From an uncultured Gammaproteobacteria bacterium (lineage in GTDB: Bacteria > Patescibacteriota > Microgenomatia > CAYXHB01 > CAZYTL01), in contig CAZYTL010000004.1 in NCBI GenBank assembly GCA_964650355.1, forward strand, positions 67,912-131,911: a stretch of 64,000 nt of DNA, given 5' to 3'. Position 1 is the stretch's first letter, and every line of letters begins with the position of its first letter. Made by a program: the position numbers and the translations under genes. The notes below the pieces were generated by a model. That model saw nothing but the letters and a program-made list of their open reading frames with translations, did no database searches and was not told the origin of the DNA. This document shows, in pieces, positions 29,645 through 41,012 of the stretch.

Positions 29645-32600
29645 CTACAAACCGTTATACTGGGTCGCCCCGTCACCGTTCACTTGGCTACCCGACTGAG
29701 CAGCAATCACCATCAACGGTACTCCATTGGTTGATTCCACCACCACTGACCCTGCCCAACCATCCGGAATATCTAATCCATCCGGTTGCTTATCCGTAGT
29801 GCTTCCCAACCATCTACTCAGTGACCGATATTGAGGTAAAGCATCGCCGCTAGAGTTAGAATAACTCACCGTCTTCATCGGACTCGCCTGTCCCGAAGAG
29901 TAATACTTTACCAACAGATTAGCTGCTGCCCCACTCCCCACATTCATGATCTGAAAACTCGACAAATACTGTCCCCCGCCCACATTCTTATTCACCGACG
30001 GTAGGAACAGTTTAGTATTTCCCGCGCCCTCTCCGTTATACGAAGACGCTCCTAAACCCCCTGCATAGTTAGCCTGATTTACAATTAAAATTACCTTTTT
30101 GTTTGCAGTCACCACCAATGACCCAAACCAGGAACTACCTAAGTCTGTATCCGGTCCTCCGTCTCCTTGGAAACGACTCACACTTTGATATTGGTTAAAA
30201 GGTGGTCCGTTTGTCCCGTCATATCTAACCGTCTTCACCAAACCGTTGTCTCCGTAATACCTAATAGTCACATTAGTTGTCCCTGCATCCACTGCCATCA
30301 CCTGATAACTGGTCGTCCATCTTCCGCTCCCCACATACCGCAAAATACTTGGAGCATAAACGATTGAAGATCCATCCTTTACCCCGTTATATGAAGTCAA
30401 CCTTCCTTCGCTATTATAACCATTTACCACTACTGCTATTTGATCTGTTCCGCTACCCGTACTCACCATTGCTCCGCCAAAAAATCCGTCAGGCAGTTGG
30501 CTATTATTAATCTGCTTCAAACTCACCACTCCATGACCCGCAATCGCTCTCGTCTCACTCGCTCCGGTTAATTCCCCTCCGTTGCTCCCTTGATAATACC
30601 TCACTGTCACATTAACTGTCGTTGATTTGGTATTCTGAATTATCATCTCGCTGCTGTATTGCCCTCCGCCAAACCGTTTTGTCACCGTCGGTAGATAAAA
30701 TCTATTTCCCAAATTGGCATTGTCCACTCCTGAGTACTGAGCAGCTCCGCTACCTCCACCGCTCCAGTTAAACACCTCGCCCACCACCGCCCCGATCGGC
30801 TGGCCGGCGTCCACCACCACGCTTCCCAGAAATCCATTCGGCAAATTAGCTACTGTTGGTTGATACACGCTCACTGACGAGCCTGCTGCTACATCAAAAG
30901 TGTGACTGGGTTGCCAAGCCACTTGATTCCCACTCTGTCCATAATATCGCGCGGTTACTTGCGTGCTCTGACTCCCTTGATTCTGCACCTGAAAACTTGT
31001 TGTCCCGTGATCAGCAGTAGCATTATTCAAAATATAGGGTAAATAAACCTTATAAGCGCCTGGAATCGGTGTAGGCTGTGGAGTCGGGGTCGGCGTTGGA
31101 GTCATTGTCGGTGTCGCAGTAGGGTTAGGATATTTCACATAAGTCACCCCATCCACTCCCACATAGTTATCATTCCCGTGAGCTTCAAAAGCCAGAAACA
31201 GCTTGCTCCCCCCATGATAGTCATTAATATTCACCGTCCGAAATACCCATCCGATAACGTCAGTACTAAAATTGATAGTCTTCAACGGCTCCCAGTGAGG
31301 CGGACTTTCTATGTAAATCTTCACCACTAAGCTCCCCGCCACATTTGTCACATTCTTGGACCAAAAACCTATCCCCCCCGGACCATACAGCGGCTCCGTA
31401 TGCACGATTGTTCCTGTATCTCCGCTAGTCTTACCCACCAGTATCACATAGGGATCATTCTCCCCCAAATGGCCATTAATCGTGCTCTTAGCACTAATTT
31501 GTGCATTCCAACATGTTGATAAGTCTTGTGTAAACTCACCGTTACATAACAACTGCGGAGCAGGTGTTGGCCCCCCAGTTGGCGTAGGCGTCGGTGTGTT
31601 AGTCGGTACCATCTCCAAACCACACATCTTTATATCCCCTGCTGTAGGCCATTGACTGTACTCAAAATATGATACCATCGGTTTTCCCGCCGAACTAACT
31701 CGGGGATCTTCAAAAGATTCATATGCAAATCCCCCGCTATTGTCAAACAACACCGGTTCCGTCCACGGACCGGTCGGACTGCCACCTCTGGCAATCTTAA
31801 TCCCCCCACCAGGTGAACTATTCGGCGAGTGATTATAAACCAACCACCAATAATCACCATACTTAAAAACGATTGAACTCTCAGGAATATCTTGTCCCGG
31901 TAGCACCAACTTCTGTCCATTCTCTTTATACATCGCCCCGTGGTCAACATAATTTCCTTGCAACAAAGACTGCACATCATTAAAAGTCACATATCCCACT
32001 ATGCCTCCGTCCGTATCTCTCCCCGTATAAAACAAATAACCCTGAGTTCCGTCATCTAACAAATAAGGATCCCGGCAATCCGACCATAAACCTCCGCCTG
32101 GGTAATCGGCTCCTGCATGCGTCGGTGTAAATACCACCGGCTTAACCTGCCAAGCGCTGGAATTAAAAGGATCAGCACTATTATTAATTGCCAATCGAAT
32201 TCTTTGTTCTCCAAGAAAAGTCGTTCCCCCTGAAATAATTCCGTTAACCTCTGTAAAAGCCATCAAATAGCTAATTTGACTCATAGGTTTGCTTTGCAGT
32301 TCAGCCACCTTTAGGAACCTTCCTGTTTGCAAATCATAAGGAGCCACATGCGGTACCCAAATATTAATAATATCCGTAGGATTAGGCTCTACCACCGGTG
32401 ACCCCGGAGGCGTATTCCCAGATAAGGTGTGTGATCCCAAAATCGTTCCCTTGTAAACCCAGCTGCTCAAATTATCAGATGACCCCGTTCCAAACCTGTC
32501 TTCGCATCCGGCTGACCCTCTCTGACAACTCGCTGTTGTCCGGTAAATGCTGATTACTGCTTCATGCAACCCGGATGAATTCTTGTAAGTAAAAGTGGTA

Positions 32601-32953
32601 TGGTCTTTAGGCAAAAACGGAGGTGAAAACCAACCCAATCCCGTACACTTCCTGACCGGATAACCCTCTATTAGTTGGACTCCAATCCCTCCAGAAGTCG
32701 GCCACATACATCTCAACCAATCAAGTAGATTAACTTTCCCGTCTGCATTTTGCTCGTCTGTATTGGGCAAACCATACACACCCAATATTGATCCACAAGT
32801 CACAGCTTCTTGAGCCATTACCACTTTCCATCCACCCCACAATACGGCCACCATCATCAACCCCAGCACCCACCATCTTCTCATTATATTTACTCTATCA
32901 GTATCCAAAATCATCGCACAAGTGGAAATTAAATTGCTCGGCATCTGCAACAC
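29645..32953 (-). CDS. Large secreted multidomain protein: beta-propeller glycosidase-like N-terminal region, PT-rich linkers, five tandem ~95-aa beta-rich repeats
   Basis: N-terminal TM/signal (likely true start MRRWWVLGLMMVAV); RDPYLLDDGTQGYLFYTG resembles GH43/GH32 propeller blades; linkers TPTPTPTGGPTPAPQ and TPTMTPTPTPTPQPTPIP; repeated units with a conserved LFLPxV...GGGQYSS...IxN...VxVxYY pattern. Confidence 0.75.
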   Translation of the reverse strand: MLQMPSNLISTCAMILDTDRVNIMRRWWVLGLMMVAVLWGGWKVVMAQEAVTCGSILGVYGLPNTDEQNADGKVNLLDWLRCMWPTSGGIGVQLIEGYPVRKCTGLGWFSPPFLPKDHTTFTYKNSSGLHEAVISIYRTTASCQRGSAGCEDRFGTGSSDNLSSWVYKGTILGSHTLSGNTPPGSPVVEPNPTDIINIWVPHVAPYDLQTGRFLKVAELQSKPMSQISYLMAFTEVNGIISGGTTFLGEQRIRLAINNSADPFNSSAWQVKPVVFTPTHAGADYPGGGLWSDCRDPYLLDDGTQGYLFYTGRDTDGGIVGYVTFNDVQSLLQGNYVDHGAMYKENGQKLVLPGQDIPESSIVFKYGDYWWLVYNHSPNSSPGGGIKIARGGSPTGPWTEPVLFDNSGGFAYESFEDPRVSSAGKPMVSYFEYSQWPTAGDIKMCGLEMVPTNTPTPTPTGGPTPAPQLLCNGEFTQDLSTCWNAQISAKSTINGHLGENDPYVILVGKTSGDTGTIVHTEPLYGPGGIGFWSKNVTNVAGSLVVKIYIESPPHWEPLKTINFSTDVIGWVFRTVNINDYHGGSKLFLAFEAHGNDNYVGVDGVTYVKYPNPTATPTMTPTPTPTPQPTPIPGAYKVYLPYILNNATADHGTTSFQVQNQGSQSTQVTARYYGQSGNQVAWQPSHTFDVAAGSSVSVYQPTVANLPNGFLGSVVVDAGQPIGAVVGEVFNWSGGGSGAAQYSGVDNANLGNRFYLPTVTKRFGGGQYSSEMIIQNTKSTTVNVTVRYYQGSNGGELTGASETRAIAGHGVVSLKQINNSQLPDGFFGGAMVSTGSGTDQIAVVVNGYNSEGRLTSYNGVKDGSSIVYAPSILRYVGSGRWTTSYQVMAVDAGTTNVTIRYYGDNGLVKTVRYDGTNGPPFNQYQSVSRFQGDGGPDTDLGSSWFGSLVVTANKKVILIVNQANYAGGLGASSYNGEGAGNTKLFLPSVNKNVGGGQYLSSFQIMNVGSGAAANLLVKYYSSGQASPMKTVSYSNSSGDALPQYRSLSRWLGSTTDKQPDGLDIPDGWAGSVVVESTNGVPLMVIAAQSGSQVNGDGATQYNGL

Positions 32954-35308: not shown

Positions 35309-35370
35309 TATCTCATTTTACCCCAACGCTACCGGATCCGTCATCATCTCTAATCCTCCACCTCTTCATC

Positions 35371-35559
35371 CTACCCCGCATCCCAATCCGGCCGAGTAAT
35401 CGCCACATACTCCAAACCTTGGGTTTCAATATGATGCTTCACCTTCGGCTCCACAATCACCAAATCCTTCCCTTTAACCTTATATGCCTGATCACCTATA
35501 CACAAAAGCGCATCACCTAAGTAACAATTTACAAGTACCCTATAATAATATATACTCAT
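35371..35559 (-). pseudogene. Displaced 3' fragment of a cupin gene, paralogous to the C-terminal half of 36124..36462
   Basis: KVKGKDLVIVEPKVKHHIETQGLEYVAITRPDW closely matches EVKAKDLVIVEPKVKHHIETRGLEYVAVTRPDW of the intact cupin. Nucleotide identity is about 85% over roughly 150 bp (35345..35495 against 36125..36275). Confidence 0.6.
35528..35556 (+). promoter_or_regulatory. Putative sigma70-type promoter TTTACA-N17-TATACT, with the ATG 6 nt downstream (possible leaderless transcript)
   Basis: Read directly upstream of 35563. Confidence 0.4.
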
Positions 35560-35562
35560 AAT

Positions 35563-36120
35563 ATGAGTGGATATATGGACTGGTATTTTGACGATCGTGA
35601 AACTAAAGTCTATACAGTACGAGAATACTGGCGATATCTGTGTCTTGCTAATTCAACAATCGACGCTTTAAAAGCTACCGGCAACCAATTATCCCCACGC
35701 GAGGAACTAGACATCAGATTCTACCGCGCTCAGCAACTCGAGGAAAAGGGCATCCAAAACTGGGATCATCATAACGACCACAGTTTTATCACCTCTGCGG
35801 TGTCTTCATATGGACTAAAAGTTGAAAGGCATACTGCCACAGATTATCAAGAATTAGTCCGCAACACTAATGCTGACCAAAGATTTATTCTCTATCTTAC
35901 TCGAAGCGTTCGTCCCAAAAACTTCAGACACCCGCACACTATACATTTGGCTCGAGAAGTTACTTCTTCTTTCCGCAGCGGAGTCTTAGGGAATGATGGT
36001 AGAATATACTCAGAACCCAGAATCAACTTGGCATTAGAAACAAACCTAGACCACTTTAGGCAGTTTGGCATGGACTTCAATATCTGGCGCATCTTTCGGC
36101 CAGGTTCCTCCCCTACCTAG
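35563..36120 (+). CDS. Hypothetical protein, 185 aa, single gene of an inserted cassette flanked by cupin 3'-end direct repeats
   Basis: ORF bounded precisely by the two cupin-homologous segments; own promoter-like sequence. Confidence 0.55.
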   Translation: MSGYMDWYFDDRETKVYTVREYWRYLCLANSTIDALKATGNQLSPREELDIRFYRAQQLEEKGIQNWDHHNDHSFITSAVSSYGLKVERHTATDYQELVRNTNADQRFILYLTRSVRPKNFRHPHTIHLAREVTSSFRSGVLGNDGRIYSEPRINLALETNLDHFRQFGMDFNIWRIFRPGSSPT

Positions 36121-36123
36121 CAA

Positions 36124-36462
36124 TTAGTCCACCTCTTCATACTGCTCCGCGTACCAATCCGGACGAGTAACCGCCACATACTCCAAACCTCTAGTCTCAA
36201 TATGGTGTTTTACCTTCGGCTCCACGATTACCAAATCCTTTGCTTTTACTTCATAAACTTCGTCCCCCACATAAAAAGTCCCCGAACCTTTGACAATAAA
36301 GAACATCTCATGGCAAACCCGATTCAAACACCGCCCCTTCTCCGGCACCCTAGACTTCACCCGCTGATAAGAAATCCCCACTTTATCATCCGGCATCGGA
36401 TAATCCCACACCACCCAATCCTTTACAGGAAACTTTGTCGTGTCTGAAAATTTAATAAGCAT
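36124..36462 (-). CDS. Cupin-domain protein, 112 aa
   Basis: Small beta-barrel cupin-like sequence with a His-containing motif VKHHIE. Confidence 0.65.
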   Translation of the reverse strand: MLIKFSDTTKFPVKDWVVWDYPMPDDKVGISYQRVKSRVPEKGRCLNRVCHEMFFIVKGSGTFYVGDEVYEVKAKDLVIVEPKVKHHIETRGLEYVAVTRPDWYAEQYEEVD

Positions 36463-36513
36463 AATCTAAGCAAAAAATTTCAATCACTTTAAATTTTTTT
36501 TAAATCAAACCCG

Positions 36514-37065
36514 CTAATCAGAATTTCTTAAATCGCTTTTAACATGGTCAGGTAAATTATCAAATGAAAACATCCCTTGTTCACAATATCTCTTAAGTCT
36601 TTCATTCAACTCTAATTTATCAAACATTTGGTTTGTAACAGGCAGAATCGAAGCCTCACAAATTTTAGGACACACGATTCTAACAAACTTTAACAACTTA
36701 TTAAGCTTTATATCTACAATACTCCAATGAAGATGTTTATGAGAAAAACCCACTAAGTCATCATCAATTTGTTTCAATTTGAAGTTTTTTCCCAACTCTT
36801 GGGGTTCCAACAGCACATACCCTTTGGATTTTATCCCATCTTTAGTTATTGCCATTCTGGTAACAACCAGATCAATTTGACTTTCATTTGTTACTCTCCA
36901 TAGAGATAATTCACCATTCACGACCTTAAAATCTTTAAATTCTTCATCATCAAGCACGTCCCCGGGCAAATTATCAGGCTTGTATGTTCTGATCTTCCCA
37001 ATATTAACTTTCTCTGGAATCTTTCCCCACTTTTTTGGATTAAACGTCCTCAAATACCATACCAT
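36514..37065 (-). CDS. Hypothetical protein, 183 aa (third gene of the AT-rich operon)
   Basis: Tight spacing with upstream genes; AT-rich codon usage distinct from neighbours. Confidence 0.55.
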   Translation of the reverse strand: MVWYLRTFNPKKWGKIPEKVNIGKIRTYKPDNLPGDVLDDEEFKDFKVVNGELSLWRVTNESQIDLVVTRMAITKDGIKSKGYVLLEPQELGKNFKLKQIDDDLVGFSHKHLHWSIVDIKLNKLLKFVRIVCPKICEASILPVTNQMFDKLELNERLKRYCEQGMFSFDNLPDHVKSDLRNSD

Positions 37066-37076
37066 GCTTGTTAAAC

Positions 37077-37709
37077 TTAAGTTTCTGCCCTACTTAATCG
37101 AGTTAATAGTTTGTGAATCATTCCTTTTAGCAATGGGTTACTCTCTTCTCCTTCTCTCTCCCTTAACTCGTCAATCAAAGCTTGTGCATCCATTTTTGAA
37201 ATGTACATCACGACACCATACCTCAAATCATAGAAACTACTTCTCAACACTCTTTTAAGTAAGGATCTTCTTTCCAGATCATCGGTATATTTGGTTAACT
37301 TAGCAATTATGGAAATTAATTCGCCTAAAAACTCTTGCCTACTTTCATCTTCCACGTCCACCTTAGCTATTTCGCTCTCAATATAATTTAGTATTTCTCC
37401 CGAATTCAATCTAACTAAATCGTACAATTTATCGTATGTTTTGCTAACAAATGCTTCATTCTGGCCTGCATTAGAAGAAACCAAAAACTCCTTATAAACC
37501 TCTTCTAGCTTTTCTGGCATTGTTTCCTCATACAGAGGTTGATATTCATCAGAGGTACTTGAATTTTCTACAACAACAGCGACACCAGGCCTTCCTATTT
37601 GTGTCGTTGTGCCCATTAATCTATTTATCTCAAACAACTGATTAAGGTCATATTTTGGTTTATCAAAGGGATCTGTCCGGCTAGTTCGTGTTAAGTTATT
37701 ATCAGGCAT
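37077..37709 (-). CDS. Hypothetical protein, 210 aa (second gene of the AT-rich operon)
   Basis: Same as above; 11-nt gap to the next gene. Confidence 0.55.
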   Translation of the reverse strand: MPDNNLTRTSRTDPFDKPKYDLNQLFEINRLMGTTTQIGRPGVAVVVENSSTSDEYQPLYEETMPEKLEEVYKEFLVSSNAGQNEAFVSKTYDKLYDLVRLNSGEILNYIESEIAKVDVEDESRQEFLGELISIIAKLTKYTDDLERRSLLKRVLRSSFYDLRYGVVMYISKMDAQALIDELREREGEESNPLLKGMIHKLLTRLSRAET

Positions 37710-37713
37710 ATTT

Positions 37714-38472
37714 TTATATTCCTTTCTTGCTTATGCTTTGTCCAATAGAAACCAACTCTCTAAATAGGTCCGTTAAAGAGACCTTAGTTAACTCACTGCT
37801 TGATTCCGGTTTGGTATTTATATCCAGTTCTAAATTACTTAAAAAAATGTCCTTTGTAGCAGATTTTGTAACATTATCCGACGTTTGAGGGCTTACTCTA
37901 AGAACAGCCCATTTTGTTAATCTATTTATTTTTATCCCCTGATTAGTCTTTGCTTCAATAGGTTTATTGATCTGAAACATAAAATTCTCTGTTTCTCCTG
38001 GTTCAATATCAAGTTTTAAATAAGAATTAATATCTTTGTAACCAACTTCCCTATTTGGAACCTGATTTACCAAAATCGCACCAAAGGCGAGTCTAGATGC
38101 CTTTATGTCTGAACACTTTTCAATAAATTTTTGCGTAACATTCAACCACCCTTCTTTGAGATTCTCAAGACTACCTAAATTAGTAAATTCCAAAGAGCCG
38201 TCTTCTTCAAAAAGGATATCTTGTTTTGTACGATATACGAAATCAATACGCACAGGAGTTTTGATTAACTCCAAAATACCTTTCTCATAATCACCCACTA
38301 ATCTAAATTCTCCACTATTTGGAGAGAAGTTTCTTGAATCTGGCTTCGAGTCCAATAATTTTTCCCATATTTCATCTACTTTCAGATCAAAGTTTAGTTT
38401 GGGAAATAAAGTTAGACGAAACAACTTAACACCCCAATTAACATTTTTTTCGTACTTTCTTTTCTTTACCAT
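37714..38472 (-). CDS. Hypothetical protein, 252 aa (first gene of the AT-rich operon)
   Basis: Same as above; 4-nt gap to the downstream gene. Confidence 0.55.
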   Translation of the reverse strand: MVKKRKYEKNVNWGVKLFRLTLFPKLNFDLKVDEIWEKLLDSKPDSRNFSPNSGEFRLVGDYEKGILELIKTPVRIDFVYRTKQDILFEEDGSLEFTNLGSLENLKEGWLNVTQKFIEKCSDIKASRLAFGAILVNQVPNREVGYKDINSYLKLDIEPGETENFMFQINKPIEAKTNQGIKINRLTKWAVLRVSPQTSDNVTKSATKDIFLSNLELDINTKPESSSELTKVSLTDLFRELVSIGQSISKKGI

Positions 38473-38735
38473 ATATCTATCAAGAATTATACCTCAAATT
38501 AAAATATCCTCCAATTCGCATTTATATTTCCTCCTCACTAAGCTTCTGGAGTAATTCACCTCTTATATTTAACCAACCAACCCTCCGTATTCCTCAGACT
38601 GCAGAACCTACTTCGACCCCCTTAAACAAACACCCCAGGCAGGACCCGAGGCAGACGAGTTAAATTATCTATTCGCAGTCTAACAGTTAAAGCGCTAATT
38701 ATCAACTCCAACCCACCTCTCACACCCACTCAAAA

Positions 38736-41012
38736 TCACCCCACGGTCTGCTCTCCCAGCATCCCCTTTGGTCTGGGTCGTCTCACCGGACCCGACCTCC
38801 GGATATCAGTCCCCACACACCATGTAAACTTAGTACCTTCAGGGAAGCGCTTTCTTTTATGAACTAAATCCCGTTCCAGCCTTTCACTCATCTTCCACAC
38901 CGTTTCCACCTCAGCATCAGCTGGCAACTTCATCTTCCTCCTTAACCAAGCCTGATATGCTCTATTCGCATCCCCGGACGGCTGTCCAAAACTCACATAA
39001 CCAGTGGTCGCAACTCTTTTAGGCGTCCTCTTCACATGAGGTCTTACCGCATGAGTCGGCGGGCCCATTGGCTCTGCAGGGTTCTTCTCCTGTTGCACTC
39101 CAATATTATCCGCATTACAACACGATTCCCGAATCAAAGGGTTCACCACCGCATATTCCATCCACCATTTGATATTATGAGGCAAAGGAGGATCAAAATC
39201 CTCAAATTTAGGGCCAAAGTCCCCGTAACCTACATGACAAACCAGATCCCGATTAGTTTCAAAATAAGGTTTTTGTGGCTTTAACCTAATAATCACATCC
39301 CAACCACCTTGTTCATCATTTTCTTTAATTTCTACATTCCTGATTAACTTTGACAACCCGTGACCCTTAAAATCATACCTATCCCATTGGGTATCTTGAT
39401 AAAAATCCCGCATTTTTTGCTGTTGTTCCAAACTTCTTTGCAACGCTAAAATTGAATTTCTTTTCACATCTTCAGGCAACCATCTCTCCAATGCTAATGC
39501 CACCTCGTTAGTCGGCACCACATTTTCGACTAAACAATATATCGAGTCCTCCTTCGGTAAATTTCTCGCCGTTGCAAAACCAGACTTATAAATTTGACTC
39601 TCGGTTAATTCACTCATGACCTCAATTAATTCCTCCCTATCTCGATTCAATCTTTCTTGAAGTAACTCATTGATTCTTACATAATCCCACCTTCCTTCGG
39701 CTTCAAACATTGCGTAACCAGACGCCCCTTCAATTACAAACCAGGTACCAACGACCTCCTTACCTTCTCCTTTGTAACTCGCACCAAACCTATTCTTCAC
39801 ATCTTCTATCACCGCTAACACCAAGTCCGCACCCACCTCTTCATAAGTTCTGGATCTCATCGGCAACCCCCTATACAGAATATTCTGCGGATAAGGCAAC
39901 TGACTAACATCCAGCCCAAAGTCAACTGGCTGATCAAGATATAGATTGTATAAATCACGACTATCACCCATCAGCCTCTCGTCATACTCTAATAATTGCC
40001 TCACCCTCTCCGAATTTCTTATATCCGACCGAGCCGCTTCCATCAACTGCGCTGAAACCGGATAATTGGCTATCGCCCACCATTGATCATCACGCAACTC
40101 AGTTCCCATTGCCTGCCCAATCAAAACTCTTTCTTGCTCAGGAATCCCTTTCAACAATTCAAACAATAAGTGCGGATATGATCTTTGACTACGCAAATAC
40201 TCAGCCGCTGCTTCTATCCTCGCTGCTACCAACAACTGGGATCCCTCTTGCGCTTCAAACTTGGGCTCCCATCCAATTCTCTGATTTAGCAAATGCGAAC
40301 TCTGTAAAATGTCCTCTGACTTCGTGTGCATATCATCCCATTCCGGATCCATCATCGAATTTGTCACCTGAATCGCTTCCCAGGCGGGAGATCCGCTTGA
40401 ATCACCCAACGACGGTAGTCGCAAAATTTTAGGAAATCCGCCCCCTACTAACCTATCAAATGTGTGGGCTGACACCAAAAAGTCACTTCCCGTAGGCTCC
40501 CTTGAAGCCATTCCTAATGCATGTAGCGTATTCACCACTCCCCTAGTATTAAAACCGGTTCCGGTATATTGATCTTCGATCACCCCGGTCAATACCCTTT
40601 CGGTTAACCTTCGTTCAAAAAATAACCTGTCACTCACTCCTTCCACTTCCTCTCTACTTAACACCATCGTACTTGCATCCCATAATCGGACTGCCTTTCT
40701 CTCATCTAGCCGTACCTCTGCATCCTGCCAATAAACAAAATCTCCAAAGATATTAACCATCCGACCCAAGGTTGCATCCAAATTCGCTATTCCCTGTCTT
40801 GAATTTCTTCCCAATAAACCCAAATCGTCTCTTCTCAAAGAAGCTAACATCAGAAACTCACCCAATCTCCATGGTTCATGTTTTAATACAGCAGCATTAT
40901 GTTGTCCGAAATGGCCACTATCTGTATCCTGTACTCTTTGAGGTAAATAAAACTCACCCTGTTCAATCGAGACTCTCTTTGACATACCTTTAAATGCAAC
41001 TTCACAAACCAA
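38736..41012 (-). CDS. Hypothetical protein, 758 aa
   Basis: Long ORF with normal GC; no recognised motif. Confidence 0.6.
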   Translation of the reverse strand: MVCEVAFKGMSKRVSIEQGEFYLPQRVQDTDSGHFGQHNAAVLKHEPWRLGEFLMLASLRRDDLGLLGRNSRQGIANLDATLGRMVNIFGDFVYWQDAEVRLDERKAVRLWDASTMVLSREEVEGVSDRLFFERRLTERVLTGVIEDQYTGTGFNTRGVVNTLHALGMASREPTGSDFLVSAHTFDRLVGGGFPKILRLPSLGDSSGSPAWEAIQVTNSMMDPEWDDMHTKSEDILQSSHLLNQRIGWEPKFEAQEGSQLLVAARIEAAAEYLRSQRSYPHLLFELLKGIPEQERVLIGQAMGTELRDDQWWAIANYPVSAQLMEAARSDIRNSERVRQLLEYDERLMGDSRDLYNLYLDQPVDFGLDVSQLPYPQNILYRGLPMRSRTYEEVGADLVLAVIEDVKNRFGASYKGEGKEVVGTWFVIEGASGYAMFEAEGRWDYVRINELLQERLNRDREELIEVMSELTESQIYKSGFATARNLPKEDSIYCLVENVVPTNEVALALERWLPEDVKRNSILALQRSLEQQQKMRDFYQDTQWDRYDFKGHGLSKLIRNVEIKENDEQGGWDVIIRLKPQKPYFETNRDLVCHVGYGDFGPKFEDFDPPLPHNIKWWMEYAVVNPLIRESCCNADNIGVQQEKNPAEPMGPPTHAVRPHVKRTPKRVATTGYVSFGQPSGDANRAYQAWLRRKMKLPADAEVETVWKMSERLERDLVHKRKRFPEGTKFTWCVGTDIRRSGPVRRPRPKGMLGEQTVG

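Follow-up and report, generated by a model that had tools for sequence, protein, structure and literature searches.

The three minus-strand genes that lie between positions 36514 and 38472 of the window (the whole stretch of DNA analysed here, 64 kb in length) can be recognised, by comparison with homologous loci, as a horizontally acquired copy, diverged in sequence, of a conserved cassette that is passed among distantly related bacteria. Most probably it acts as a conflict module in its own right, resembling toxin-antitoxin systems or serving as an anti-phage defence of the abortive-infection type. We infer this function at about even confidence. The three genes, in the order A-B-C, and the elements around them are the following:

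36470 to 38560, no strand assigned: low-GC island of about 33–36% GC, delimited in a 400-nt GC profile
37714 to 38472, minus strand: gene A (252 aa, from the ORF list), family core protein of the cassette
37077 to 37709, minus strand: gene B (210 aa, from the ORF list), divergent protein of the HEAT-repeat partner family
36514 to 37065, minus strand: gene C (183 aa, from the ORF list), third-gene family member and predicted effector
38473 to 38630, minus strand: upstream region, probably the promoter, a putative reading of the sequence
38631 to 38653, minus strand: terminator-like hairpin, a 10-pair stem followed by a T-rich tail, found by pattern match only

The description of three tightly packed minus-strand genes given in the first-pass annotation was accurate, since the ORFs are intact, have the lengths listed above and are separated by intergenic gaps of 4 and 11 nt. 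Equally well founded was its remark that they are AT-rich, with lower GC and a different codon usage from the flanking DNA. The trio (1959 bp) has a GC of 0.342 (34.2%) vs. a mean of 0.459 elsewhere in the window, i.e., 11.7 points below its surroundings, and when all other same-size windows of the 64 kb were taken as a reference (n = 1163, sd 0.019, minimum 0.406) it was the lowest (z = -6.3), with no other as low. The GC3 values of the three genes were 0.33, 0.32 and 0.28, compared to 0.50 ± 0.06 for the 39 other ORFs (minimum 0.36), and the strand skew at third positions indicates that adaptation to the host is only partial. The edges of the low-GC island are sharp, at ca. 36,470 and 38,560, and it contains the trio with its upstream region and nothing else. 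Within that upstream region there are a putative TATAAT (38491–38486), 13 nt ahead of the ATG of gene A, a putative upstream ORF of 13 codons (38521–38480) with a GAGGAGG Shine-Dalgarno sequence, and two 15-nt direct repeats of the GGAGGA type placed 22 nt apart. A sigma-70 scan reported no full promoter in 38473–38630. The terminator-like hairpin stands after the upstream gene, which codes for a 758-aa protein, and as a pattern match it sets the trio apart as a putative transcription unit of its own. Reading the three ORFs as spurious was ruled out because all three genes are conserved.

Gene A belongs to a large family. A first search over 5.8 billion proteins gave 29 homologs with E-values from 2e-30 to 2e-8, and the family profile retrieved 3,920 representative clusters at 50% identity; all the matches listed were standalone proteins of about 250 aa. 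No Pfam model exists for this family. The protein of the window keeps the motifs RLAFGA, QINKPI (QINRPR in the family consensus), KINRL and LELDINT, together with the invariant residues R127, N169, I182-N183-R184, L216, D217, N219, T220 and G251. With these residues and a best E-value of 2e-30 it can be assigned to the first-gene family of the cassette that we call A-HEAT-C. Its AlphaFold2 model (pLDDT 90.9) contains two beta-alpha-beta4-alpha repeats. The comparison of this predicted fold with the PDB gave no significant match (best TM-score 0.28), the weak matches being S-adenosylmethionine decarboxylase (AdoMetDC) and proteins like the TATA-box-binding protein (TBP), and the family profile had no matches among PDB sequences. 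Because no fold in the PDB matches significantly, any role given to gene A is only a guess. One homolog, from Desulfonema magnum (WP_207681939.1 / A0A975BJF0), carries in UniRef the name of TIGR04255, an uncharacterised family of NCBIfam/TIGRFAMs, and the likeness consists of that name. In contrast, gene A itself did not match the TIGR04255 model in NCBIfam at E ≤ 0.1, so that the curated cut-off is not reached. Since TIGR04255 is uncharacterised, the name tells nothing about the mechanism of gene A, and the literature searched on TIGR04255 neither mentions the family nor describes the cassette.

The two smaller genes are much more diverged. A word-indexed homolog search with B and with C returned only the query itself, and their homology was recovered exclusively through synteny and profiles. 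When 44 partner proteins were made into a profile, with the window sequence left out, gene B matched it at E = 1.7e-9, and by BLAST single linkage it fell in the cluster of HEAT partners. We place it, as a divergent sequence, in the HEAT-repeat family whose members come second, after A, in about half of the loci. At the family level, 37 of the 44 members match HEAT_2 (PF13646, best E = 3e-12), 26 of the 44 match HEAT_PBS, and there are matches to alphaRep and HEAT structures in the PDB; the window protein aligns with the family but, taken alone, gives no HEAT_2 match in Pfam. These HEAT_2 and HEAT_PBS matches are what the B proteins share with the HEAT proteins of the PBS-lyase type (PF13646 / PF03130), from which they differ in being short (2–3 repeats), in starting with a variable N-terminus rich in Ser/Thr, in having the motif FEDGxESxFS as a family-specific feature, and in being always encoded between A and C.

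Gene C can likewise be placed in the third-gene family, whose profile, built without the window sequence, it matches at E = 7e-16. An invariant Ser (motif LS[VL]W) and an invariant His (motif [WL]H) characterise this family and correspond to S54 and H113 in gene C. Neither Pfam nor the PDB sequences gave a match to the family, and no toxin or catalytic domain could be recognised in the protein of the window. Its single-sequence structure model was unusable (pLDDT 34).

The homologs of the trio show a recurrent arrangement. We found more than 80 homologous loci in more than ten phyla (among them Chloroflexota, Cyanobacteria, Nitrospira, Planctomycetota, Acidobacteriota and Proteobacteria), with A in first place and two small genes after it. 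In 70 of 80 loci the end of A and the start of the second gene share 4 nt, where the window copy has a 4-nt gap. In the main type, which accounts for about half of the loci, the second gene codes for a HEAT-repeat protein and the third for a member of family C, and these two co-occurred in all of the 45 loci where this could be tested. Among cultured organisms, main-type homologs occur in Phormidesmis priestleyi BC1401 and Nitrospira sp. NS4, and variants in Desulfonema magnum and Acidithiobacillus ferrianus. The cassette was defined in this analysis by comparative genomics. Judged from the family membership of its three proteins and from strand, order, spacing and low GC, the window trio can be identified as one of its copies. 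The literature searched (on TIGR04255 and on HEAT repeats in defence) gave no account of such a cassette. The statement that the function is entirely unknown and that the genes carry no recognisable motifs was therefore an overstatement, given that the trio is part of a large and conserved family of three-gene cassettes. As regards the motifs, it holds for the proteins of the window taken alone (Pfam, NCBIfam, PHROGs and PADLOC) and does not hold at the level of the families, with HEAT repeats in one and a relationship to TIGR04255 in another.

Composition and context both indicate mobility. In all of the 71 loci compared, the GC of the module was below that of the 5 kb on either side (mean difference -9.3 points, p = 2e-13); the genes flanking the module are not conserved and its distribution is patchy. 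Together with the outlying composition in the window, this strongly supports the earlier proposal of an acquired module. No member of the A family turned up among 2.9 million viral contigs, 50,697 phage records or 72,556 plasmids. A search for empty sites in metagenomes, by means of the flanking 758-aa protein and the cupin, found no relatives. The proposed integration hotspot next to the trio, with a scar at the 3' end of the cupin gene, fared differently. A repeat does exist there (35357–35506 vs. 36128–36277, 79% identical over 150 nt), but it has no link to the trio: it brackets an ORF on the plus strand (35563–36120) at the far side of the cupin gene, within a segment (35507–36127) of host-like composition. 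The scar was rejected as the integration site because it does not bracket the trio, and the hotspot fails along with it. At the edges of the island there were no shared direct or inverted repeats of at least 9 nt and no att-like repeats, no tRNA genes were found in the 64 kb, and none of the eight proteins scanned between 34.6 and 41.9 kb gave integrase-like Pfam matches.

The duplicated 3' end of the cupin gene, and the fact that some homologous modules lie in or beside phage-like regions, would be in line with the trio being leftover cargo, devoid of a coherent function, from a prophage or integrative element for which the cupin gene was the point of entry. We regard this as very improbable, given that the repeat surrounds DNA of host composition instead of the trio, that no integrase was found among the eight proteins scanned, nor any tRNA gene in the 64 kb or flanking repeat, and that the three genes are intact, keep the invariant residues of their families and appear together in at least 45 unrelated genomes.

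What points to a conflict module is the nature of the third gene in the remaining loci, in which A is found with other partners. There, the third gene codes for a PIN, HEPN, HNH or peptidase A2 protein, all of them domains commonly seen in toxins or effectors. Three members are of the PIN type (E of about 3–5e-4, full-length alignments, motifs LDTG and DAD), one of them named "nuclease" in UniRef, and the HEPN match (E = 2e-5) was above the Pfam cut-off. The HNH match was weak, and both PIN and HNH were slightly under the Pfam thresholds. Peptidase A2 was recognised by an LLDTGA motif and by the UniRef name. Profile-profile comparison did not link the variant partners to B or C, and a profile search with the three variant third-gene families against PDB sequences gave no matches. 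In the tree of A, which is poorly resolved, the partner types are interspersed, as would be expected from repeated partner swapping, and the association of A with PIN, HEPN, HNH, peptidase A2 and family C indicates that such swapping has taken place in evolution. Since the third gene is in some versions a toxin-type nuclease, the cassette as a whole is therefore most likely toxin-antitoxin-like or anti-phage.

Among the immediate neighbors of the homologous modules, about 10 of 148 (ca. 7%, a raw share without a background rate) had a strong match to defence or mobile-element families, and the majority were ordinary metabolic or housekeeping genes, which makes the defence-island signal weak. 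Some copies lie in an inovirus-like prophage, beside a primase/DUF3987 element, beside a methyltransferase with ResIII or beside toxin-antitoxin pairs; other neighbors were AbiE, type I specificity, MzaA and phage capsid genes. With PADLOC-DB 2.0 the window proteins produced only noise (E ≥ 0.004), and no model matched any of 30 members of the A family. The defence-database check suggested along with the first-pass annotation thus gave no match either for the window proteins or for their A homologs. Its expectation of an anti-phage or toxin-like system finds only indirect backing, in the variant third genes and in some defence and phage neighbors, and none in PADLOC, in the low share of such neighbors or in the phage and plasmid collections.

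These same neighbors, mostly metabolic or housekeeping, and the absence of the A family from phages and plasmids would also suit a mobile accessory module that works outside conflict, e.g., a niche-adaptive metabolic or stress-response complex that is often transferred. A would then be an enzyme or a small-molecule binder, an alpha/beta sandwich of the AdoMetDC or TBP type with a polar cleft, with B as its HEAT scaffold and C as the subunit in charge of regulation. The alternating conserved polar residues on the beta-strands of A, as found in enzymes and ligand binders, and its weak fold matches to AdoMetDC and TBP-like proteins go in the same direction, and HEAT proteins of the PBS-lyase type are often accessory subunits of enzymes. 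However, the replacement of the partner by PIN, HEPN, HNH or peptidase A2 fits a single metabolic activity badly, no pathway gene is conserved beside the module, and the low GC relative to the host in every locus compared and the patchy distribution also speak against it. We consider such a complex unlikely, although deserving of some weight.

A purely selfish, tripartite toxin-antitoxin addiction module, which would stabilise itself and its carrier DNA and have no role in phage defence, would draw on the same evidence as the conflict module favored here, namely toxin-type third genes in variants, tight coupling, mobility and low GC. In one copy of the family a frameshift interrupts C, which would be in line with a cost of carrying that gene. 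Plasmids are where addiction modules are most common, yet not one of the 72,556 plasmids carries the family. The genes are also larger than those of the classic type II pairs, and no DNA-binding antitoxin domain was recognised in the window proteins with Pfam or NCBIfam. Pure addiction appears to us decidedly unlikely.

In the conflict module that we favor, C would act as the effector or toxin, and the HEAT-repeat surface of B might hold or neutralise C, or else recognise a trigger protein. A, as the universal core, would be kept in a fixed ratio with B through translational coupling, and may sense or regulate by means of a conserved polar patch (R127, N169, N183/R184, E215/D217/N219), proposed to lie on the beta-strands of its C-terminal half.

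Two known systems are among the closest to the cassette. Toxin-antitoxin-chaperone (TAC) systems (CmdTAC) are mobile, and a role in phage defence has been demonstrated for them (PMC11618068; 10.1101/2024.02.24.581848). Both they and the present cassette consist of three tightly coupled genes, in which a conserved accessory protein is combined with differing toxin-antitoxin pairs. Unlike A, which is encoded first, the accessory protein of TAC systems is encoded last, and it is a SecB-like chaperone; besides, the fold of A has no significant match in the PDB and its sequence no PADLOC model, and no antitoxin with a chaperone-addiction tail was identified in the cassette. The second is Panacea (PanA, DUF4065), with the combinatorial toxin-antitoxin network (10.1101/2021.05.07.442387; PMC10440598). 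As with PanA, a single conserved family is found here beside many unrelated domains (PIN, HEPN, HNH, peptidase A2 and family C). However, Panacea consists of two-gene pairs in which PanA itself is the antitoxin, whereas our cassette has a middle gene and its A protein has no match in Pfam.

For the source genome, the trio marks a clean horizontal insertion of 2.1 kb. At the level of the family, we would give slightly less than even chances to a broader proposal, i.e., that it represents an undescribed family, widespread in environmental bacteria, of immune or toxin-antitoxin-like systems with three genes, composed of the core A, a HEAT adaptor and an interchangeable effector. The core would be a TIGR04255-related protein, with neither Pfam model nor significant PDB fold match and translationally coupled to the adaptor; the effectors would comprise the new Ser/His family (C), PIN, HEPN, HNH and a retropepsin-like protease. 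Chloroflexota, Cyanobacteria, Nitrospira, Planctomycetota and Acidobacteriota are poorly covered by defence-system screens. If true, the system would be common in these five groups, and a large family for which we found neither a Pfam model nor a paper in the literature searched would get a testable role, that of the component which stays constant in a modular conflict system. To the known repertoire it would add a core fold and an effector family (C), both new, as well as an effector of the retropepsin-like kind, and the cassette would show clearly how effectors are exchanged while the sensor or regulator is conserved.

The three-gene block singled out in the first-pass annotation was recovered at exactly the positions given there, as minus-strand ORFs separated by gaps of 4 nt (A-B) and 11 nt (B-C). 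In order of transcription they are:

37714..38472, minus strand, gene A, ORF of 252 aa
37077..37709, minus strand, gene B, ORF of 210 aa
36514..37065, minus strand, gene C, ORF of 183 aa

The distinct AT-rich composition claimed for this block was borne out by windowed GC and by GC3. The GC content of the 1959-bp block was 34.2%, against a mean of 45.9% (sd 1.9, minimum 40.6) over 1163 other windows of equal length (z = -6.3), and the edges of the low-GC region were sharp, at ca. 36,470 and 38,560. GC3 was 0.33 in A, 0.32 in B and 0.28 in C, compared to 0.50 ± 0.06 (minimum 0.36) in the 39 other ORFs of the window. A terminator-like hairpin is located after the upstream 758-aa gene, so that the trio looks like a separate transcription unit. 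Gene A is closely preceded by a 13-codon ORF (MRIGGYFNLRYNS, 38521-38480) with a strong GAGGAGG Shine-Dalgarno, which ends 7 nt before the ATG of A; gene A has no Shine-Dalgarno of its own. Two 15-nt direct repeats of the GGAGGA(A/T)AT type, 22 nt apart, are found in the same place (38480-38534). Such elements might serve coupling or regulation, or be due to chance.

The strand asymmetry of the window is far above what bacterial chromosomes usually show. The GC skew of the plus strand was -0.37 ± 0.06 in every 2-kb window across 1-64000, and at third codon positions genes on the minus strand had a coding-strand skew of +0.60 and those on the plus strand one of -0.57, indicating that the bias tracks the DNA strand and not gene direction. 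The trio reached only +0.50, +0.28 and +0.30, below the minus-strand value, as expected of DNA not fully adapted to the host. Outside the trio the window is ordinary chromosomal DNA that encodes glycosyltransferases, an ABC exporter, pyruvate:ferredoxin oxidoreductase and an enzyme resembling acyl-CoA synthetases. Two minus-strand ORFs, 38736-41012 (758 aa) and 29645-32953 (1102 aa), had no match in Pfam, NCBIfam, PHROGs or PADLOC, and the metagenome scan gave no relatives of the 758-aa protein. A long polysaccharide-biosynthesis region spans 41234-63969; among its products are several glycosyltransferases, a sugar transferase of the Bac_transf type, a fusion of deacetylase and glycosyltransferase, and a protein of 1678 aa with two GT2 domains and a GT4 domain.

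The repeat at the 3' end of the nearby cupin gene, previously flagged as an integration scar, is real: the last 150 nt of the gene (36128-36277) recur in frame at 35357-35506, with 79% identity, as a 3' remnant. However, what it flanks is a stretch of 620 bp with host-like composition, which lies beyond the cupin gene as seen from the trio and carries a plus-strand ORF (35563..36120, 185 aa) that matched nothing in any library searched. The duplication may have arisen when the cupin gene underwent insertion or gene conversion long ago; it is unrelated to the boundaries of the trio. The edges of the low-GC island have no common repeats of at least 9 nt, no tRNA gene or Rfam family was found at threshold within the 64-kb window, and the Pfam scan of the eight proteins at 34.6-41.9 kb gave no integrase. 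The scar therefore does not account for the entry of the trio, and the argument for an integration hotspot is not supported.

Taken singly, the window proteins A, B and C had no match in Pfam, NCBIfam, PHROGs or PADLOC, and each was a singleton in clustering at 90% identity. To this extent the initial description of proteins without recognizable motifs stands, but it fails at the family level, where gene 2 encodes a HEAT-repeat family and A is related to a protein with a TIGR04255 annotation. The alignment of A has strong motifs (RLAFGA, QINRPR, KINRLxKWS, LELDINT and a C-terminal GDI). We found 29 full-length homologs of A (ca. 250 aa, E 2e-30 to 2e-8, 26–36% identity), and a profile built from them reached 3,920 representative clusters at 50% identity (2,118 at E <= 1e-30), the best 150 of which were standalone proteins of 234–342 aa. 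Neither A nor its 29 homologs contain a Pfam domain. One homolog, WP_207681939.1 of Desulfonema magnum, is named "TIGR04255 family protein" in UniRef; the window A did not reach the TIGR04255 model in the NCBIfam search, and a literature search found no paper mentioning this family. The AlphaFold2 model of A from a 30-sequence alignment (pLDDT 90.9, pTM 0.89) has the strand and helix order of two beta-alpha-beta4-alpha repeats. Foldseek found nothing significant in the PDB (top global TM-score 0.28, to S-adenosylmethionine decarboxylase, AdoMetDC), and in the viral structure library all matches were weak, namely to small proteins of giant viruses, TATA-box-binding protein (TBP)-like proteins and a prokaryotic AdoMetDC. 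Tentatively, the predicted fold may be a TBP/AdoMetDC-like double alpha/beta unit. In the C-terminal half, beta-strands carry the conserved polar residues (R127, N169, N183/R184, E215/D217/N219), which alternate with hydrophobic ones in strand 214-220; this suggests a putative binding or catalytic surface.

Gene maps around the A homologs, together with 80 additional loci taken from species-representative genomes, revealed a common layout in which A leads and two genes on its strand come after it, one of ca. 200–300 aa and then one of ca. 150–180 aa. The hosts include Chloroflexota, Cyanobacteria, Nitrospira, Planctomycetota, Acidobacteriota, Gemmatimonadota, Verrucomicrobia, Latescibacterota and several classes of Proteobacteria (among them Acidithiobacillus and Desulfonema). 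In 70 of the 80 loci a 4-nt overlap (ATGA) joins the stop of A to the start of gene 2, suggesting that both genes are translationally coupled. Gene 2 encodes a HEAT-repeat protein in about half of the loci (PF13646 matched 37 of 44 members and PF03130 matched 26), and its family also matches alphaRep/HEAT structures. In these loci gene 3 belongs to a single family, C, in which a Ser (in LS[VL]W) and a His (in [WL]H) are invariant and no known domain was found; both partners co-occurred in all 45 loci with a long enough contig. Profiles of these partners built without the window sequences matched window B (E = 1.7e-9) and window C (E = 7e-16), and BLAST clustering assigned both to the same groups. 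The window trio, which retains every invariant residue of A and those of B and C, is thus a diverged yet complete member of this main type. In another locus (L002, 7619-8100) the C profile matches two separate frames, of 106 and 54 aa, in place of one C gene, which looks like a frameshifted copy.

In the other loci A is paired with different small proteins, without detectable similarity to B or C in profile-profile comparison. Three variant third genes are of PIN type (E ca. 3-5e-4 over the full domain, just below the Pfam cut-off), with the pattern LDTG...E...DAD...T(T/N), and one of them carries the source name "nuclease". One encodes a HEPN protein (E = 2e-5, above the Pfam cut-off) and one a weakly matching HNH protein. 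A further family (loci L046, 7431-7910; L023, 7392-7886; L033, 7350-7829) has the retropepsin signature LLDTGA and the UniRef name "Peptidase A2 domain-containing protein", with no Pfam detection at E <= 0.5; as a candidate effector of a bacterial conflict module it would be unusual. In a rough, star-like tree of A the variants are scattered among the HEAT and C type, which fits repeated replacement of partners around a constant A.

The GC of the cassette was below that of its 5-kb flanks in all 71 loci compared (mean -9.3 points, Wilcoxon p = 2e-13; -11.7 points in the window), and no neighbor was conserved. Together with the GC and the partly adapted skew of the trio, this gives good support to the earlier proposal of an acquired module. 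The 148 immediate neighbors were mostly metabolic or regulatory genes, with a minority of phage capsid (3), Pol-beta nucleotidyltransferase (3), PDC-S09 (3), AbiEi/AbiEii, type I specificity subunit, methyltransferase and MzaA genes. One copy of the main type (L007, 1-9739) lies within an inovirus-like region, between replication/RstB/coat B genes and Zot/DUF2523 genes, and seems to be carried as cargo by a filamentous prophage. Single copies adjoin a primase/DUF3987/HTH_17 element or a methyltransferase and ResIII helicase, or are close to DUF433/DUF5615 toxin-antitoxin pairs or a group II intron; further copies are found among housekeeping genes. Searches of 2.9 million viral contigs, 50,697 phage records and 72,556 plasmids gave no member of the A family.

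The cassette may be a conflict module, either toxin-antitoxin-like or an abortive-infection-type defence, and we give this reading about an even chance. We infer it from the constant first gene tightly coupled to a variable adaptor, the lineage-dependent third gene (PIN, HEPN, HNH, retropepsin-like protease or family C), the universal AT-richness relative to the host, the patchy spread across phyla and the variable neighborhoods. C would be the effector, the HEAT protein B would hold C or recognize the trigger, and A would be the core sensor or regulator. The comparison itself shows the family, its synteny, the coupling, the co-occurrence of partners, the composition and the kinds of variant third gene; the conflict function and these three roles are inferred. 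The anti-phage or toxin-like role first proposed is thus plausible from the types of variant third gene and the mobility, although no window protein matched PADLOC and the defence-island signal is weak. This weak signal, the absence of A from the phage and plasmid collections searched and the enzyme-like conserved patch of A all favor the main rival, a mobile accessory enzyme or regulatory complex, which we consider rather unlikely. The cassette matched no described system in the libraries searched. For a conflict module, its two nearest analogies are the toxin-antitoxin-chaperone systems of phage defence, in which a conserved chaperone is combined with differing toxin-antitoxin pairs (PMC11618068; 10.1101/2024.02.24.581848), and the Panacea antitoxin domain, whose partners are many unrelated toxins (10.1101/2021.05.07.442387; PMC10440598). 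It is plausible that A and its partners form a modular conflict cassette that is not among the systems described in those libraries.
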